Of a stretch of DNA of 64,000 bases, positions 1-44,235 are shown in pieces. The DNA comes from Tubiluchus corallicola (Eukaryota > Animalia > Priapulida). The stretch covers positions 310,001 to 374,000 of the forward strand of contig JAQGDQ010002374.1 of assembly GCA_030141605.1 (NCBI GenBank). Direction: 5' to 3'. The notes beneath the pieces are model-generated. The model made no database searches. It was not told the origin of the DNA and was given only the letters and a program-made list of their open reading frames with translations. Numbering within the stretch: the stretch's first letter is position 1; every line of letters starts with the position of its first letter. The translations under genes were made by a program, and so were the position numbers.

Positions 1-220
1 AAAAAGCATTTACCAGAAAGATTTCTTAACAGGAAAATCACGGTTACTTTTTAACTGCTAAAAGTTTGCTGTCTTAGTGGAATAAAGCTTTCGATTTCTC
101 TTTCTCTGTCTGGTTCTCCCTTGTAGTTCTTTCCCATTTCCCATCTTATCCCTCTCATCTTCTCCCTCTTTTCATCTCCCTCTTTTCTTCACTTTCTCCC
201 CCGTTCTATCGCCCTTATTC

Positions 221-225
<5 letters not shown>

Positions 226-266
<41 letters not shown>

Positions 267-270
267 GTCT
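226..270. repeat. (CT)n microsatellite within a pyrimidine-rich tract
   Basis: Direct reading; pyrimidine-rich from about 95 to 550. Confidence 0.9.
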
Positions 271-1226
271 TTCCCTTTGTCTTTGTCTCTTTCCCTCCCT
301 TTCTTCTCTCTTTCCATCTCACTTCTCAGCCCGCCCTCTCAATTGAATTTGAAGTGATTATGTGTAGCAAATGATACAATGCAAATTATGCTGAGAAAGC
401 AGTTTCTTATTCGTATTCGTATTCTCTCACCCGTTTTGTTCTTTCCCTACCCGGCATCCCTCCCTTTCCCTTTCTCTCTGTCATCCCCTCACTTTTTCAC
501 TCTTTGTATCTCCTCCCTCTCTCTCTTTCGGGTTTTCTCTTTCTGTTCTTCTTTAGTTATCTACAGGGCTTTGATTAATGACTAACAAAAATCAGATTCA
601 TTTCAAATAACGTATTGTTTAGGGTCAATCTTGTTTTTTTGTATTTCGTTTTGGGTTTGTTTTGAAAATTCATTGCTACAATTTAAGATTACTACTTTTT
701 AGGATGAAACTTTTCTCTCGGCGTAATTTGCATTGTATCACATGCTGCACATAATCACTTTAATTCACTTGGTTTTCATAAGATTTAAGATAATACTTGA
801 TAAATAATAATTATTAAAAATCAAAATACAAAGCTTTGCGAACGATACAGATTTGTTAATATCTTGAGGTCGACATATGCCCAATGAATTATGCTACTTC
901 GCTAGCAAGTTCAATAGCAAGATAAGCCTCTGAGATAAAATACTGAACAGGCAGAGATATCACAGTCACATTCAGATGCATGAACATCTCTAAACATCAA
1001 GAAATGATTCGGAATCACTGTAAAAGTACTATCCAAGAGTGATATTAATTTGCAGTTTCCCTACAAATCAGTTGCCCTGCTTTGTGCTGCTTAAAGTTGA
1101 TAATCAATTACTCGCCGTGAGTACTCACTATTGCGTTTATGCAAACTTCAACATGATTCACTACCTTATCGTTCTAACGTTGTAAATCTATGATTCATTA
1201 CATTTTCCGTGCATTTTATTTACCAG

Positions 1227-1273
1227 TTCTGGGAAATGGCAGTTTTTTTCTCGGAAGTAAATACTTCTGGCAA
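1227..1273. promoter_or_regulatory. Cluster of STAT/GAS-type sites
   Basis: TTCTGGGAA 1227-1235 and TTCTCGGAA 1248-1256 match TTCN3GAA; TTCTGGCAA 1265-1273 has one mismatch. Confidence 0.5.
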
Positions 1274-2540
1274 AGTGTACACCGTTTAGTGCTTTGATAA
1301 AAGCAGCTGACACTGGTAGTGAATATAAACAATTATTACAACACTGTTTGCAAAAGATCAAGTATTTGAATAAATTTAATCTAAAAAACTTTTTATACAA
1401 TTTAAAATCGTCAACTTAAAGGCGTCTTGTAGGAGCATAACTGAATAATTCATTAAAATATAAACCTGTACTTCCATTCTGCACTTGCATTAATATATCT
1501 GTACATAATTATAATAATTACTAAACTAAAGTGCTAAATTAACAATGCTTGTTCAGTAGCCGATGGAGATTTTGGAAACGATAGCGTAGGCACTTCTGTT
1601 AGTGGAAGGAATGCTTTCCCCATTTAAGTGACTTAAATTAGCCACAGGTTATCCCCGTACAATAAGACGGGGATGAGTAAAGCCCGGGCAAGGTTGTTGA
1701 TGTTGGGTTTTCCCTTTACACCAACCTAAGTATTCATAAGGCACAGGCATAGCGAAGCACAGGTATTATTGACACACATCAAGCGCCAGAAAGCACATAT
1801 CTTCAGTAACAAGAATACTGCACGTGCAGCTGCAAGGTAAGAATATTATACACTTATTAGTAGTAACGCGATAAGCTTATAAACTTAAATTCCTACACGA
1901 ACGTTAAAATTCAATTGATAGTTCGTACACGTTTACAGTATAAGTATTACATACGTATGTAATTTAAAATAGTTTATTGTGCTTTAAAATCTACATCTAA
2001 TAAACTTTTTCGCTTTCCGTGGCAAATGGCATTTACAATAATCTGAAAACTTTGAATTTAAAGTAAAATATTACTATACGTACGCACACTTACGAAGAGA
2101 GCACTAAAAGCAGCACAAATTTTCAAGTGGCGAATCGTATCAGTTTTGTGAACTCCAAAAAGTTCCTTTCCACTAGAAAACAGTTCAGTCACTTTCTCTA
2201 GTGGATCAGTACCAAAAAATGCACCGGCAAAGTAAAAAATACTTTATGGTTTGATGTAAATGTTGTAAAAACTTAGCATAAACAACTACGTTGATGTAAA
2301 TAAATGGTGACTATTTAGCTTCAACGCCAAAAACACAATGTGCCGAAGCATCTTCGTTATTATAGTCAGGTTTAATGTGACTTACATTGAACTTCATAAT
2401 ACAGAAAAGTTTGCTTCGCAAACCAGGCAGCGGGGATTAAACTCTCACTGTAAACCTTTTATTTGTTTTGTGTACATCTCCAGATTATGAGACCTTTTCA
2501 TGTGACTGATTGAAATTTACATTTATTCTTCCCAGATTAC

Positions 2541-2542
<2 letters not shown>

Positions 2543-2618
<76 letters not shown>
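2543..2618. repeat. (AT)n microsatellite
   Basis: Direct reading. Confidence 0.95.
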
Positions 2619-2620
<2 letters not shown>

Positions 2621-3024
2621 TCGTTATGGTATATAAAATGATGAAATTTCTGAAGACCACATTTTCTGCTTTTTACTGTAAATCATTGGGTGTTTAATAG
2701 GTTTGAATTTTTGAAATAGTCTGCGTTACTATATGCAGGTCTATAATTTCTGATATTAAATTTTTTTATAAAGTTGACTATTATAGATGACAACAATCCA
2801 GCTTTTATTTCTATCGTGAATATAGCTAGTTCAAACAATTTAATGATTTAGCGCTACCCGCGAGAGAACGTCATATCGCCTATTCCTAGATCTAGATAGT
2901 CAACTCAAAACTGATAAATCCCTTCTGTGTAAATGTGCATGTGCAATGCTGGAAGATTGTCATCAGTTGACATAACACCTGATAATACTCATTATGCCCC
3001 CACCTACATAAATGATAAAGCCGA

Positions 3025-3070
3025 CCAATGCCTATATAAGCCAGTCTTTGCGCTGAGGTTGCATCATTAT
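3025..3070 (+). promoter_or_regulatory. Core promoter of the 3-exon gene (TATA box plus initiator-like TCATT)
   Basis: TATATAAG at 3033-3040 with TCATT about 30 nt downstream (about 3064); CCAAT at 3025-3029. Confidence 0.6.
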
Positions 3071-3209
3071 TTCGTCATTCTGATTTCTTTGTGACTATAA
3101 TGTTGTCGATAATATCAGTGCAAGTATCAACGTCTATAGTTATTTTTTGACCAGGTTTAATAATTTTTAATTTGACAAAGGTTCCGTTTGAATATGAGAA
3201 ACAAGAAAC

Positions 3210-5161
3210 ATGTCGGGGGATAAAACTGCAGAAGAACAAGTTGCTCGTGGCAGTGTTGTAACAGTTGAAATGGAAGAGCCAACTACAACGAAAGACACGA
3301 AAATGATGCGCTTTATTGTGAGGCTGAAGAAAATATCGAGAAATGGATTTAAAACCTTTAAAAATTTGTTTAAATTCGACTTTAACATCTCTACCGTCTT
3401 GGTGGTATTGTTGACAGTTTTCATGCTAAAAAATGACGAGAAGGTGCCGGACTGTAATCATTGGCATAACCACGTGACTCATCATTTCAAAATGCCTGCG
3501 ACAGTCAAGAAACTAACCCAGTGTGAAACTGTGATCATGCGGGCTCAAGCTGTTCGGTTCAAAGCTGAAGAAGTCTCGAACGAAATTCTGCCAAAGGTAC
3601 ACATATTTTGTATATATTTTACTTTATACTTTATCGACCATATATAGTCACATATTAGATCATACATAAATCATTCTATAGTCTTAGACAGTAAGGCAGA
3701 TTGTTAGACAGATATATGAAGTACAATTATTACTGAAATCTAGAATACCATTATGTCAGCAATGAAGGTGTGACCTTTTTCCACGTTAAATAGCGACGCA
3801 GGACAATAAATGGCAACTCACACAAGTTAAAAATACAAACATCAAAAACAGTCGCAGAAGTAAGCGAGCATACATAATGTTGCATACACATAAGCTCAAC
3901 GTCTATAACTCAAAAAACTATAACGCACGAAAACAAAAGTAACAAATTGTATCAATATTATATATACAGAATACGCCTACCATCCATAGTCCATATTTAT
4001 TTTAACTGCTAAACTTTCACTGTGATGTCTAAAGGTTAGAAATTGAGTAGGCCTATCTACAAGTTAAATTTGGGCATTAGAACTTGTGGTTTTCTTACGT
4101 TTGAAACACTTGTGCACGTTCATCGTTTTGTGACTAGAAAGTCTGAAAAGCGGCGTGATCAATGACAATATCTGTCACAGCAATCACGCGAGAACAATAA
4201 CAGGTCAAAATTAAGTTTCAGATTGCAACTACACTGATGTGTAGAGAGCTATCTCTCGCAAGAGGAGCGACAAAATTAACTCTGGGTTGTCTGTGTATAA
4301 TTAAAAATCATTTTTTCAGTTGGGATTTGAATCTCATCCAGGATATGATTTGTACCCAGGACTGATCGCCGACGAAGGATTTCCATCTCCGCCAGACATT
4401 GATTCAAACTGGAGCGTATGTTGATTGATTAATGTACAAAATTAATATTTTCGATAGACTGCATTGGCTAGAAATGTAGGCTTGTTTGTTCTTATTGGCG
4501 CGAAAAATATTCGTATCGACGGCGGTTATCTCAATACTGTATTTAAAAATGCCTACATATGTGCTTACCTTTAGCCAACTACGGCTTTTTGTTAGTTGTT
4601 TTGTAGTATACATATACTCATATTCATCAAACAAAATAGGGCAAGTTCAAAAAAGCTTAAACTAAGAAAACATAGAAAATATAAAAATAGAAGTTATTTC
4701 TTTTAATTTTTTTAAGTTTTAAAATTATTTCAAAATTAATTATTTTAGCAATGTAATCACAGGCCATAATCTGCGCGTATCACTAAGTTTTACAAGAATA
4801 CCTAAACTAAATGAATTTTTATTTATAGGCTTTCGAAGTGGTGGATCTCGTTTATAAAAACACCACAAACATCTTGGAATTTGTGACTGAAGCGGCTGAG
4901 TCTTATGAGGGGTTTGATTATTCTCTAGTCTACGTCGTAGATGAGATTAGGAATTTGATCGCCTTGGTATTTTTCACCTCGGAAGCCATTACGGGGCAAG
5001 TAGTGCAGAAGTTTGACGCTGATGTTACTCCCAAGAGTCCGGTCAACCCATCAGAATTTGATTTTCGAACGTATCAAATGATGAGAAATCTCATGAGCTA
5101 TATGACTTTTGTTCAAAATGTTTATGATAAAATAAACAAAAATGAAATAGTTTCGGCCTGA
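3210..5161 (+). CDS. Uncharacterised 3-exon gene, 271 aa; candidate long-chain four-helix-bundle cytokine with an N-terminal hydrophobic signal/anchor
   Basis: Exons 3210-3596 (AAG|gtacac), 4320-4415 (ttttttcag|...AGC|gtatgt) and 4829-5161 (ttatttatag|GCT...TGA) join in one open frame with both introns phase 0. TATA box upstream and AATAAA downstream. The gene model is well supported; the cytokine identity is inference from helical pattern only. Confidence 0.75.
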
Positions 5162-5235
5162 TTGTTGTTTTTTGATAGCACGTGTAAGTACCTTAATCAA
5201 AGTATTGGCTACCTAATTATCCCAGTGATTTTGTT

Positions 5236-5280
5236 AATAAATGTTATTCTCGTTTTTTGGTTTGTTTTGTTTCTTTTTTG
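5236..5280 (+). terminator. Polyadenylation signal of the 3-exon gene
   Basis: AATAAA at 5236-5241 followed by a GT/T-rich downstream element at about 5253-5280. Confidence 0.5.
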
Positions 5281-6195
5281 CTTATATCCATATGTAGCAT
5301 ATATATTATAAGGACTATAATAATATATTTATATGACTGAGCACGTCTAATGCATTGTCTTATCGTATTTTGATATGTCCCTATAGTTTTTAACAATGTA
5401 CACGTAATTATATTAAATTATATTAATACTTCCTTATTTATTTGTAATTCATTTGTATGATTCAGAAATACAGCGTTTAATGAATTACTCATATTTATTT
5501 AAATTCGCAGATGCACGTCTTTTAAGCCTATTTCGTGACTAGGGCCTATATATAACACGAAAACTCATGGTGTCTAACCTCAAAGACAAAGTATAAAATG
5601 AAATTAAAAACTTAAAAGTTAATGGATTATTTAAGCTTAGTATGTACGAGTGTCTCAGGACAAGTAGTTTTGCTGCTAAATTTTGCTGACAGCTATCATG
5701 TTCAGTAATGATTTTGTAATTTATGTATATAAAACTCATAGATATGTAATGTTGGGCAATAAACTGTTTACCTATGTCACGCTATAGTTTTCAGTCTCTG
5801 TTGTTTTGCACGTGTTTTTATCATGCAAGCCAAGTCCCACACTCAGAAGCAATGCTATCACATCGGCATCACAGATAAAGTAGCAGACAATTTTTAGATG
5901 GCTACCAGTTAAATTTGTTTACTAAATAGACCCAGCACTGCTTAAGTTTACAACCAAGCACGCACTGTGGCAACTCATGCAGTTGTTTTCCTCGTTTTAC
6001 TACGATGCTACTTTATCAGTTCATTTAAAAAATTCATATGGATATCGCTTGCTGGAATAGTTAGCTTTACAAATGACAGATAAACTGAATATATGACATA
6101 GTTAACAGCTTCGAATAAAGTATATCCCCGAAAATCTGATGGGTAAAGAATTTATAGAGCAATAGGTAAAGAAGGTTAGGTCATAGAGACAGCTA

Positions 6196-6449
<254 letters not shown>

Positions 6450-6884: not shown

Positions 6885-14368
<7,484 letters not shown>

Positions 14369-39600: not shown

Positions 39601-42600
39601 ATGTATGGAATATATTACAGCCAGGTGTCTCACCTGAGACATTGCTTGCGAATCTGGTAAGCAATTGCTTCCCTTCATCATTGTAGTTGTTGCTTGCAAT
39701 GCATTACACACTTGTGGATGACCATATGCTTTATTATTGTAAGCCTGTTGCTGGCTTCCTCCTGCAGATGGCATCACGTTTGTTTGCAACAATGTACTTT
39801 TATTGGCTGCAGAGGAGCCAGCACTGTTTGATGGCAACATTAGGCCCAGTTCAGACGATGAAACTAGTGTTCTGTTTGCAGACGTCTGAGATACGTTCAA
39901 CAGTTGATTAGACAATTGCACTTCGGCAACACTCGAAGACTTATTACTATTTACATTGTTCTGAACAGAAAAACCAGGTGATGTCGGAGAGCTCGAGTAC
40001 GTACTGTTGGAGAAAACGCCAGACGAAGGGCTGCTCGTAAATCCAGACACAGTCACGTTAACCTGCGGACTACTAGAAGGTGTTGCTGATTTACTGTTTA
40101 CAATATTTGGCGGTGGAGATGCCAAGTGATTGTAAATTGGGCTTCGCTGAAATCCAGGACTGGAAGTTGCGCCACGAGTGGCACATTGTGGACTACTGGA
40201 CTTCGGTCCTGCTTTGTTTGGTAAGAGCCGGGCTAAAGAAGGGTTGTCTATTATAGTGCCGTTTACTAGACTCTGCGACGATGGTGCACTGAGAGTTGTG
40301 GAGTTGCTAGATGGAGGCGGATGTTCTCCCATGACAGATTCCCAAAAACTGTCAAAGGCATCTGAAAAAATAAGCAACACAAATGATGTTTGAATTCTAA
40401 AGCTACAATGTAAAGTTAGAGACATGTACAATATTATTTTTTGTGCAATATGGACAAATGGATTATACTTTATACAAGTAATGTAGCATTCAGCGAAACG
40501 GCCTACTCAATACGTTGGTATTTGTGACGAGTCTGGATCTTAGCTCAATGTCAGGGGGTAATGGTTTCTCAGAGGATTAGTCTTGGTAATGACCCAGGTT
40601 ATGGTACATTGTTCTGAACGGTAAAACCAGGTGATGGTTGGAGAGCTGGTTTTGCGGCAGTCAACCTGTCAAATCCTATAATGTTGAAAAAACTTCTTTA
40701 GATGAAATTGTGTTTTAAAATCATCATTAAGTATATCCGATTGAGAAGCAAATTCAAACACAAATAAGAGCGATTCTGCAATAATGAATTAGCCGTGCAT
40801 AACTAATGTGCCCAGTAAGGGCCATTGAATTTAGTTTTACAACAATGCACGTGTTTAAAATCAATGAACTTTTTGTTTACTGTGTAATATGTGACAAAAT
40901 GTATTTCATTTTCGCAGTGAAACTGCAACTTATTGATAAACACAGTATGTCAAATGTCTGCAAAAAGCGCTCATTATGGAAATGCTATTTTTTAATTCCA
41001 CTCTTCCATTTCTTTCGAAAACTGAACTTTTCGAAAACAGATTTTCCTGATATTTAGCAAAATTTTGCTATTTCACGATAAATCAAACTGCAGATATTTG
41101 CATAAATATCGACCAATTTTGATCTGGTTAAACTTTCATAGTTACAGTACTGGGCTGGCGCGCACTTGTGAGATAGGGTACCAAGCATAGCCGCCCACAA
41201 TCCAATGTCTCTACATTTCTGCAATATGAGATAACTCAGCTAGGTGGCTAACAGTTAAGCTTATTAACTTTCACACAACCTCAAGTTGCACAGCTCCATT
41301 GTTGAACACTTAAACATGTCTAGCCACAGCTGCTCAGGCAGCATTTAACTAAAGGAGTTGTTTGGGACTTCGTTAATCATTAACAATTTCTTGCTAGACT
41401 GTTTTAATTTTGCAATTTAAGCATCAGTGATAAGCTTTTCTCATATTTTTCGGGCAAAGGAAAACATTTCATACATTGTAAGGTTGTCAAATTGCTGTAC
41501 AAAATTAATGTTGTATAGAATAATTCTTTACACATTGAAAAAAATGAAACAGACAGATTTTTTAACTGTCTGGCCTAATTTCCAATAGAAAAATTGCTTG
41601 TACCAAGTACTGTAATGTACATCACCAGTATTCAAATAAGATTAATAAATTAAGGTGGGCCTCAAAACAAAACTGTTTATGTCTTACCTCATGAATTCAA
41701 AAGGGATTTAGAGAGGGAGGAAACAAATTTTCTTTCCTTTAGTTTGTGTTTCAGTTTTTTCGTATGGTATGAATGAGATATATGGGACAGATGATTATCT
41801 TTTTCGTGTCCTTGGTAAGAACATATGTTCTAATAATTATAATCGACAACACTACTAGGTCGTTAATATGATAATTTGACAGAAAATTCAATCATTTTTA
41901 GCTACCAATTGATATGATAATAAGCACTTTACAGAATGGTAACCACGGCCTAAAGTTAGCCATAAAAAACATGGTTGCGTCCTCGCCGAAATATTAAATT
42001 AAAAAAATGCACGCATACGATTGTCAGGTACCTATGAACATACAAAAAGATTATAAAATTCACGGCTGGTTGTGCACTAAAAATATTCCGAGTGAGTGTA
42101 TTTAGTTGTCTAAATCATAAAGTTAAACTTGGTTTTGTTCATATTTTTATATTTTATATATGGTTGATTATGCCTGGGATGAAAGGAGATCTTAAAGCTT
42201 CACAGTCATCAGCAATGAAGATGTGCAGCATTGCCATGTAAAAATGTTCGAAAAAGTTAAATAAATGACAATTTCTCTTTATATGAAGTATTTTACCTAA
42301 GATTTTTCGGTGGTTTTTGACATCTAAAGAAAAGAAAAGGTAAGCTGGATAAATACTACTAGTACCTCGGAAAAATGCAACCGAAAATTAGTGAAAGTGT
42401 CTGGAAAACTTAATAATTTTTGACAAAAACGAAACTGAACCGAAAAGGTAACTATCAGCAAACTGAAACGAAATTTCCATTTTGGTAACATTCCCACTGC
42501 TGACACATTACTTTTTGCTCAGACTGTGACCGATTAATAATATCTGTGCAATATAATATAAAGAAAAAAATATTTTACATAATATACAAAATCAATATAT

Positions 42601-43069
42601 TCCATTAAACATGTATAACATAACTTTATTATATTTGTAATTTACATTTAAATTTTCTAGTTGTTAGCTAGATTTTGTTTGGAAGCCTGCACAGTTATTG
42701 GTTTCAATTCGATTCACGAAAAAATAAGAATAGAAATCAGTTTTCTATGTTACACATGCGTGATTCTAAAAATTTACTCAGTTAGGCTTAAATCGTCAAG
42801 TTTAAAATTGCGTGAAATTGTAGCATGGTTTTTACAGTGAATTTTACAGACCTGTTTAAATGTAGCTCATTCCAGGGGAAACTCTACTCTAGTACAATAT
42901 ACATTATAAATTGAATTACTACACTCTAGTCAAATCAGAGTGGAAAAAAATAGAAAATATTTTTTAAATTACCATGATTAGATAAAGAAAGTGTTGGAGA
43001 TGACAGTTTCTGTCTTTTGGCAGGCAAATCTTCTTGGCCAAGTTCGTGAACCTGATGTCGTTCAGCCAT
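18695..43069 (-). CDS. CREBBP: CREB-binding protein / p300 histone acetyltransferase, about 2382 aa, 30 coding exons
   Basis: Exons in transcript order: 43069-42973, 40361-39634, 39031-38795, 38272-38056, 37180-36938, 36750-36550, 36308-35981, 35549-35432, 35195-35057, 32276-32026, 31771-31676, 31550-31362, 31150-30850, 29611-29496, 28216-28046, 27775-27618, 25979-25899, 25184-25050, 24750-24683, 24276-24129, 23730-23584, 23439-23326, 23230-23065, 22885-22658, 22534-22379, 22172-21897, 21679-21275, 20751-20533, 20216-20004, 19897-18695 (7149 nt, phases consistent). Domains in order: MAE...[10 protein letters not shown]-terminus, TAZ1 ([21 protein letters not shown]), KIX ([19 protein letters not shown]), bromodomain, RING/PHD, HAT ([28 protein letters not shown]), ZZ, TAZ2, NCBD ([24 protein letters not shown]). 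Low-complexity exons are less certain. Confidence 0.96.
28586..29309 (-). mobile_element. Non-autonomous pogo/Tigger-type DNA transposon in a CBP intron
   Basis: TIRs CAGTGGACTCTCGTTATAAGAATCAC / GTGATTCTTGTAACGAGAATCCACTG, TA on both flanks, repeated subterminal GATTCTTATA motifs and a residual 48-aa ORF at 29051-28905. Confidence 0.9.
29815..30176 (+). mobile_element. Degenerate 3' end of an RTE-like non-LTR retrotransposon
   Basis: Purine-rich decayed coding sequence reading CLRRIL...LRKKRWN...GRPRTT, typical of the RTE-clade C-terminus; stops and frameshifts present. Confidence 0.6.
30310..30732. mobile_element. MITE with 12-bp TIRs and internal TCCCTGAC repeats
   Basis: CAGGGTTCCCAC / GTGGGAACCCTG perfect inverted ends; flanks TAACTATAA / TTATTATAA (7/9 match, possible decayed 9-bp TSD); several TTCCCTGAC copies. 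Confidence 0.8.
34400..34764 (-). mobile_element. 5' fragment of a Tigger/pogo transposon
   Basis: ORF start [30 protein letters not shown] resembles the Tigger transposase N-terminal HTH; decayed TIR TACATAGGAACCTCGACTTATGAA on the minus strand at 34764-34741. Confidence 0.75.
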
Positions 43070-43099
43070 GGTAATGTTGACAACGAACTGCTTGAAAGT

Positions 43100-43650
43100 T
43101 TTTCACCAAAGCAGTACGAAACGGTGACTACACAACTCAAAATAATTGCACCAAATTATCAGCTACTCGCAAAGTAACAAATAAATAAAAGAAACGTAAA
43201 AATTCATAATAAAATCTCGTTGGCTGTTCAGGGCATCACAGTTTTAACAGGTAAACAAGCGTCCAAAACGACTACTCAATGCGCATATTAACACTGTACA
43301 AAAGTCATTAGTAATATGAACATGTGAACGCCCAGCGAAAATGTTTTTTGCACATATTTACTGCTGGTACTCTCGTGCATATTTTCGAAAAGAATAATTT
43401 ATACATAACACAAATTAAGGCAGCTAAAGCGAATATAAAATCTACGAACTCCGGTGCCCAAAATCTACGTGAAAATGGCGGCCGCTGTGAAAACTTACGA
43501 CAAACAACGAAGTTTGCCGACCCGGAAACACCCGAGCGAAAAGTAATTAGCATAATACCACGTGATCGCCTACTGCATGCGCCAGCACAGTGCGCACTTT
43601 GGTCATAGTTTTCTGCTGCTGTACGGCGACCGCCGTTGTCTGTTCTGTTC
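43100..43650 (-). promoter_or_regulatory. Probable CBP 5' UTR/promoter region
   Basis: CpG-enriched patch directly upstream of the CBP ATG, with a YY1-type motif AAAATGGCGGC at about 43472-43482. Confidence 0.45.
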
Positions 43651-43937
43651 ATGTTTCAAGTTTTCAAAAATAGAGAACTATTACATATCTTTTATCGAAA
43701 TCTCTTGTTCTAAATTTACTGCTCCAAAGTACATTGGAACTAAAAATTTTTATGTCCTACAAAAGCACTATTTGATATGGTGCATCTATAGAAAATCATT
43801 TTTCCAGTTTACTCAGAACCAATTAATACACTGCTGTTATACTGTCGTGATTAGGGGTTAAGCGAGTACACTCAGAAACCCGTAACTCCAGAAACACTAT
43901 GGGCTTTAATCTTTCTAAGCAGTCTTCGATGAGCAAA

Positions 43938-44235
43938 GCCATGGCAAAATCAAAATAAACGACATCAACAGGACTTCCTTGATCAAGCATAGAAGTGATA
44001 TCACCGAAAAAACTTATTGGATTGGTCAAGCAAGAATGGCCTTTAGTGAATCCATGTTAGGAGTCAAATAATATTCTTTTCAAAATGAACAATGATATAA
44101 CTCCGCAAAATAGATCTCATGACTTTACATACTAATGAAGTTAAAGAAATAGGCCAATAATTACCAGGATCACTACACAGGCCTTTCTTAAAAATAAGTG
44201 TTACGTTGGCTAACTTCCAACTATGAGGTAGTGAA
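43938..44235 (-). mobile_element. CR1-like LINE reverse-transcriptase fragment (degenerate)
   Basis: Minus strand reads WKLANVTLIFKKG...DPGNYWPISLTSLVCKVM, then HGFTKGHSCLTNPISFFGDITSMLDQGSPVDVVYFDF, matching the N-terminal motifs of CR1 RT. Confidence 0.88.

Follow-up and report, generated by a model that had tools for sequence, protein, structure and literature searches.

A candidate long-chain class I helical cytokine gene in the priapulid Tubiluchus corallicola

The class I long-chain helical cytokines share an arrangement of four antiparallel helices that run up-up-down-down (PMC7378365), and among invertebrates the Unpaired 1-3 proteins of Drosophila, the ligands of Domeless, are the JAK/STAT ligands that have been called IL-6-like (PMC8226699, PMC7378365). 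In the accessible text of the sources consulted, Unpaired 1-3 are named as the invertebrate helical ligands and no other invertebrate member of the IL-6 family is reported (PMC8226699, 10.64898/2026.10.26.761873, PMC9195186, PMC7378365, PMC1963337, PMC9601804, 10.1101/2022.06.30.496838, 10.64898/2026.05.30.728932, PMC3772116, PMC12148326, PMC4929537). Interferon folds were screened for with Foldseek in a study that bears on class II alone, and the available part of its report describes none outside chordates (10.64898/2026.05.30.728932). A literature search with most subscription journals and supplements outside its coverage found neither a priapulid JAK/STAT ligand nor a survey that used structures to look for class I cytokines in invertebrates. 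Here, a 64,000-nucleotide stretch of the genome of the priapulid Tubiluchus corallicola (contig JAQGDQ010002374.1, positions 310,001 to 374,000; termed the window, in whose numbering positions are given) is found to contain, at 3210-5161, a gene whose product is a good candidate for a new long-chain class I cytokine of invertebrates and likely is one.

In the favoured interpretation, which is given a probability of roughly 0.6, the last 170 residues of the product would constitute a long-chain class I cytokine from the CNTF/IL-6 side of the group, made as a membrane-anchored precursor and acting through a Domeless/gp130-type receptor and JAK/STAT. The evidence comes from the exon structure and a conserved relative, from the predicted arrangement of helices, and from two candidate receptor-contact positions.

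Exon structure and a conserved relative

As read from the window sequence, the candidate gene consists of three coding exons on the plus strand with a product of 271 residues:

3210..3596 (+), coding exon 1: 129 codons, residues 1-129, from the ATG at 3210 to the donor AAG/GTACAC; acidic head (1-31), basic amphipathic region, hydrophobic stretch, His-rich linker and predicted helix A
3597..4319 (+), predicted intron 1: 723 nucleotides, GT-AG, phase 0
4320..4415 (+), coding exon 2: 32 codons, residues 130-161, with a T run before the acceptor and the donor AGC/GTATGT; predicted Pro/Gly-rich AB loop, with Trp160 and an N-glycosylation sequon at its end
4416..4828 (+), intron 2: 413 nucleotides, GT-AG, phase 0
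4829..5161 (+), coding exon 3: 110 codons, residues 162-271, and TGA (5159-5161); predicted helices B, C and D, a short BC turn and a CD loop with Pro

A full HMMER scan with exon 3 against 1.84 billion protein representatives (E<=0.001) returned a single protein, P0001, a one-member cluster of 133 residues that derives from one Logan record (a 1,047-base contig) and is 79% identical over 107 residues. Its first 22 residues correspond to the end of exon 2 (14/22 identical, 64%; pairwise E 2e-10), with the Trp kept, and from this match it runs on directly into exon 3, the junction holding one additional residue. Because P0001 reads across the exon 2-3 junction, the animal it comes from must have either a spliced transcript or a lost intron 2. 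Identity amounts to 23/25 in helix B, 21/24 in helix C, 17/23 in the CD loop and 15/25 in helix D, and the changes are mostly conservative, with one Arg-to-Pro in helix D. At the level of sequence, exons 2 and 3 are confirmed by this conserved relative and the 271-codon frame is confirmed as a real gene; the exon 1-2 junction is predicted only.

The spliced frame had been proposed in a preliminary description of this DNA, together with a middle exon missing from the open reading frame track and two phase-0 introns, and all three proposals agree with what was found. The frame is open, the splice signals are present and P0001 joins exons 2 and 3; the middle exon, at 32 codons, is too short for an 80-residue list of frames; and both introns (2/2) are in phase 0, one after helix A and the other before helix B. 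Phase-0 introns between helices are a feature of class I long-chain cytokines, for which the literature search gave no paper, and since phase 0 is the commonest intron phase the match is weak as evidence of family. GC content is 0.41, 0.47 and 0.39 in the three exons but lower in the two introns (0.34 and 0.27). For the middle exon there are 23 open candidates in phase 0 bounded by YAG and GT, four of which survive a simple screen on donor and pyrimidines; of these, 4320-4415 is the richest in GC and is also the one matched by P0001. Among the 12 in-frame GT sites in the frame of exon 1, the highest AT content in the DNA downstream (0.83) belongs to the site after residue 129. A contig from run X1, compared over 2900-4690, covers 2900-4190 unspliced over the first donor and without joints, with three single-base differences from the window (3007, 3101 and 3469); contigs from run X2 have no match to 2900-4690.

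Other searches at the sequence level returned no further relatives. A word-based search with exon 3 among proteins of 194-2000 residues gave none at E<=0.1 from 93 candidates, a two-sequence profile run against proteins of 60-233 residues recovered P0001 alone among 92, and searches of PDB sequences gave 0 matches at E<=10. No paralogue was detected by tblastn inside the 64-kilobase window, and Unpaired had no sequence match in any search run. In Pfam scans of single exons, parts and P0001, the only matches were sub-threshold and unrelated, with none to IL6, IL11, CNTF, LIF_OSM, GCSF or Hormone_1.

Predicted fold and receptor contacts in relation to known families

Helices B, C and D are predicted in exon 3, where the preliminary description had put them, at positions 2-25, 32-55 and 79-103 of that exon, giving lengths of 24, 24 and 25 residues separated by a BC turn of 6 and a CD loop of 23. 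All prolines of exons 2-3 (8/8) lie in the two long loops, the AB loop being drawn according to the predicted exon 1-2 junction. This predicted layout, in which long AB and CD loops are combined with a short BC loop and helices of about 25 residues, matches that of the long-chain class I cytokines. The remaining helix and one motif of helix D are placed as follows:

3498..3590 (+), predicted helix A: residues 97-127, with no internal Pro or Gly and a helix propensity (0.38) above that of the other segments tested
5057..5068 (+), FxxR (Phe238, Arg241): start of predicted helix D, candidate site-3 contact

The structures modelled comprise helices B-D only, for exon 3 and for P0001, with predicted local distance difference test (pLDDT) scores of 49-52. 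At this pLDDT the B-D model matches the B-D part of cytokines yet ties in Z with ferritin-like folds. Its structural alignments show 6-10% identity to the CNTF-side cytokines, and its best match by root-mean-square deviation (rmsd) is with the group of IL-12p35, IL-23p19 and IL-27p28 (2.5 Å over 93 residues). For the model of exon 3 alone no cytokine is among the 50 structure matches listed, a list that cannot exclude one, and a Foldseek search with the P0001 model against PDB and viral structures gave nothing at E<=0.001. A helix-A piece co-folded with P0001 as two chains obtained a score of 0.02 and a mark of 0.34.

In the ESM Atlas, the cluster nearest to exon 3 is cardiotrophin-2-like (0.91, 207/256 features, recognition 2415), and the ten best family-bearing matches (10/10) all fall in the clan of CNTF, PRF, Hormone_1, IL11, IL6, GCSF and LIF_OSM, each cytokine family being annotated on under a third of the cluster members. 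As a control, 4-10 of 100 shuffled proteins attain 0.9, and one-clan lists come up for a third of such proteins. P0001 falls in the same clusters at 0.76-0.82, which is a lead only and is not independent of the result for exon 3.

In gp130-family complexes, as described in the available text, site 1 is served by a Trp that ends the AB loop (CNTF W64, CLCF1 W94, p28 W97) and site 3, in LIFR binders, by an FxxK that opens helix D (10.1101/2022.06.30.496838); Arg takes the place of Lys in 14.6% of OSM sequences (PMC9601804). Trp160 is the only Trp in exons 2-3, stands two residues ahead of exon 3 and is kept in P0001, and its position at the end of the AB loop makes it a candidate site-1 residue. 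The FxxR at Phe238 is likewise the sole FxxK/R in exons 2-3 and is kept in P0001; an FxxK/R arises in the same 9-residue window in 5.2% of shuffles. When seven contact residues (10.1101/2022.06.30.496838) are spaced from the Phe, the best score falls on Phe238; 1.1% of exon 3 shuffles and 7.5% of P0001 shuffles reach it at some position.

From these comparisons the candidate would work most like CNTF, CLCF1 and cardiotrophin (PDB 1cnt, 8d7h; PF01110, PF06875), and it is a candidate only for membership of the IL-6 family. Common to both are the predicted B-C-D topology, the nearest Atlas cluster, a Trp at the AB-loop end, a Phe-x-x-basic motif opening helix D and a helical part without disulfide. 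The candidate departs from them in its low identity in the structural alignments (6-10%), in the distance from Trp to Phe (78 residues vs 88 in CNTF and 84 in CLCF1), in the Arg rather than Lys of the motif, and in having 95 additional residues at the N-terminus, among them a basic region and a hydrophobic stretch that comes late. IL-12p35, IL-23p19 and IL-27p28 (PDB 1f45, 8xrp, 5mzv, 7u7n) provide the best model rmsd and, in p28, an AB-loop Trp, but these are chains of heterodimers and site 3 of p28 is formed by Trp, not Phe. For Unpaired, where the comparison is by description only, kinship is a possibility.

The tie with ferritin-like proteins (Dps, ferritin, rubrerythrin and COQ7), which have the same three-helix arrangement, raises the question of whether the protein could be a lineage-restricted helical bundle that is not a cytokine at all, either a type II membrane protein or one sent to an organelle by its basic amphipathic segment, with a likeness to cytokines that goes no further than a hairpin of two helices, a crossover and one more helix. 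This appears unlikely. Ferritin-like diiron proteins bind iron through ExxH ligands and consist of two helix pairs with the fourth helix last. The ferritin-like matches use the first three helices and need a fourth after them, whereas the candidate ends 8 residues past helix D, the third helix matched, and has its additional helix on the N-terminal side, set off by a long loop. The iron ligands are also wanting, with ExxH in none of the exons and His in neither exon 3 nor P0001. Furthermore, the family matches in the Atlas are to class I cytokine families only, and the Trp and FxxR stand at the expected places.

Growth hormone and prolactin (PF00103; PDB 1f6f, 3n06) belong to the same clan in both the Atlas and the fold lists, and the candidate might accordingly be a class I helical cytokine that acts as they do, or as the ligand of an orphan receptor such as CRLF3, instead of through a receptor of gp130/Domeless type. 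In the growth hormone family a conserved disulfide ties the CD loop to helix D, whereas Cys is found in neither exon 2, exon 3 nor P0001; the candidate also appears to have no standard signal peptide, and the FxxR that opens its helix D is a site-3 mark of gp130-family ligands. Such a mode of action is judged quite improbable.

The N-terminal region and the 5' end of the gene

Ahead of helix A, the product and its transcript have features that bear on topology:

3306..3377 (+), residues 33-56: basic segment that is amphipathic (hydrophobic moment 0.64, p 0.004)
3387..3428 (+), hydrophobic stretch: residues 60-73, Kyte-Doolittle value 2.79 over 14 residues and 2.05 over 17 (57-73)
3194..3223 (+), upstream open reading frame: 9 codons, out of frame, overlapping the first ATG

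Residues 32-59 include 8 Lys or Arg vs 1 Asp or Glu, and the hydrophobic stretch is basic before and net acidic after. Considered by hand under the positive-inside rule, these flanking charges favour a type II anchor that stays uncleaved and leaves the cytokine domain on the outside. Residues 60-73 are thus likely to be a type II signal anchor or else the core of a long signal peptide. By eye, no small-residue cleavage motif was noticed after the stretch. A long signal peptide beginning at Met21 or Met32/33 is possible because the upstream frame overlaps the first ATG, and with further in-frame ATGs at 3270, 3303 and 3306 the true start codon is a choice among several. Sequons at residues 159 and 172, the second of which is kept in P0001, would fit passage through the secretory pathway. 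Upd2 is said to have a predicted signal anchor. The available text of PMC3772116 and of PMC12148326 makes no mention of one; the latter describes an unconventional route by which Upd2 exits cells (PMC12148326).

Between the hydrophobic stretch and helix A, the linker (3429-3497, +) is His-rich, with 5 His in residues 74-129, and its Cys82 could pair with Cys105 of helix A or join two chains. The A>G variant of the X1 contig at 3469 would turn linker residue Asn87 into Ser.

Candidate regulatory elements, identified as consensus matches only, lie on both sides of the coding exons:

3033..3068 (+), TATA-like box at 3033 and initiator-like site at 3066: usual spacing, candidate core promoter
1227..1256, pair of STAT-type TTCnnnGAA sites at 1227 and 1248: 21 nucleotides apart, 1.8 kilobases upstream
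5434..5503 (+), two AU-rich nonamers in the predicted 3' untranslated region
5236, 5412, 5603 and 5758 (+), poly(A)-type hexamers in the predicted 3' untranslated region

STAT-type sites number 20 in the 64 kilobases, and the two at 1227 and 1248 are the only close pair. A pair this close occurred in 0/1000 shuffles of the 2.5-kilobase upstream region, both spacing and region having been picked after the data were seen; the probability of such a pair anywhere in the window is 0.12. The AU-rich nonamers are borderline, as many being present in 2 of 127 tiled 500-nucleotide windows and in 51 of 1000 shuffles of the untranslated region, where the count of ATTTA pentamers is not above that of shuffles (288/1000). 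There are no NF-kB consensus sites within 1-6300.

A strong donor at 1836/1837 (1834-1841, +), one of only three MAG/GTRAG donors on the plus strand of the window, follows the STAT pair at a distance of 590 bases, and just ahead of the first ATG there is an acceptor-like site at 3154/3155 (3143-3155, +); together these may delimit a non-coding first exon transcribed from a second promoter. A (TA)n microsatellite of ~74 bases (2545-2618) is located 400 bases upstream of the TATA-like box.

A number of findings weigh against a cytokine of the CNTF/IL-6 side as drawn here. The preliminary description had proposed an IL-6/Unpaired-like ligand; the B-C-D layout of that proposal stands as a prediction, and candidate contact residues can be added to it, but the amphipathic character assigned to helix A does not, and sequence searches gave no named family. 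The hydrophobic moment of helix A is not significant in any window (p 0.36-0.85, 6/6) or in a separate test (p 0.60). The buried positions of CNTF helix D presumably fit better one residue off the Phe238 register, so that the more distal contact-residue matches may be due to chance. Exon 1 has no relative among 15 candidates from a word-based search of proteins of 70-226 residues, P0001 begins inside exon 2, the first ATG is overlapped by the upstream frame and followed by three others in frame, and the donor at 1836/1837 with the acceptor-like site at 3154/3155 suggests a further 5' exon. These last four points favour a faulty 5' gene model, with another first exon or a later ATG and with the anchor or helix A not as drawn, exons 2-3 being real; this is very improbable, in that exon 1 is a 129-codon frame in which GC is at coding level up to a steep drop at a phase-0 donor, contributes the only helix missing from exons 2-3 and has the TATA/initiator pair just ahead of it, and in that all three frames before the 1836 donor carry stops within 100 codons.

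Genomic setting and significance

Downstream of the candidate gene are an exon of PRPS (ribose-phosphate pyrophosphokinase) at 13491-13832 (+; E 1.8e-22 to human PRPS2) and a CBP/p300 gene at ~18695-40500 (-), with identified Creb_binding, TAZ and ZZ exons and more low-complexity, exon-like open reading frames up to 40506. The ZZ-TAZ2 exon is unlike human p300 and CBP at many positions, a divergence larger than for a vertebrate orthologue. The observed/expected ratio of CpG falls from 1.0 in the candidate gene to 0.65 in CBP, a mosaic pattern of the kind seen in invertebrates with gene-body methylation; at 42001-44000 it is 1.01 vs 0.36-0.88 around, marking a candidate unmethylated promoter region of CBP. 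In vertebrates, CREBBP and EP300 lie on chromosomes that also carry CTF1/IL27 and LIF/OSM, which may be a lead for macro-synteny.

If the gene does encode a cytokine of the CNTF/IL-6 side, helix A (97-127) would complete the up-up-down-down bundle, the Trp at the AB-loop end would serve site 1 and the FxxR site 3. The basic region would be cytoplasmic and residues 57-73 would span the membrane, with the cytokine domain facing outward and acting while tethered or after cleavage in the linker (74-96). Engagement of a Domeless/gp130-type receptor would then activate JAK/STAT, perhaps with STAT feedback on the gene's own promoter, and the TATA box, upstream STAT pair, AU-rich untranslated region and absence of CpG loss suggest that expression may be inducible and short-lived. 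A more specific proposal, offered tentatively and with considerable doubt, is that of a priapulid CNTF/LIF-type cytokine that is a type II membrane protein with the topology of TNF, signals on contact between cells or once shed, and is induced through its own STAT pathway.

Receptors of Domeless/gp130 type, JAK and STAT are widespread in invertebrates, whereas helical ligands have been described almost only in Drosophila. Should the tethered form be real, a ligand with a recognisable site-1 Trp and site-3 FxxK/R would exist at the base of the moulting animals; it would link Unpaired to the vertebrate IL-6 family and provide an instance of a tethered class I cytokine. A gene with vertebrate-like receptor contacts would offer a direct test of whether the IL-6 family was present in the ancestor of protostomes and deuterostomes, and the candidate may serve as a seed sequence for ligand searches in other ecdysozoans.
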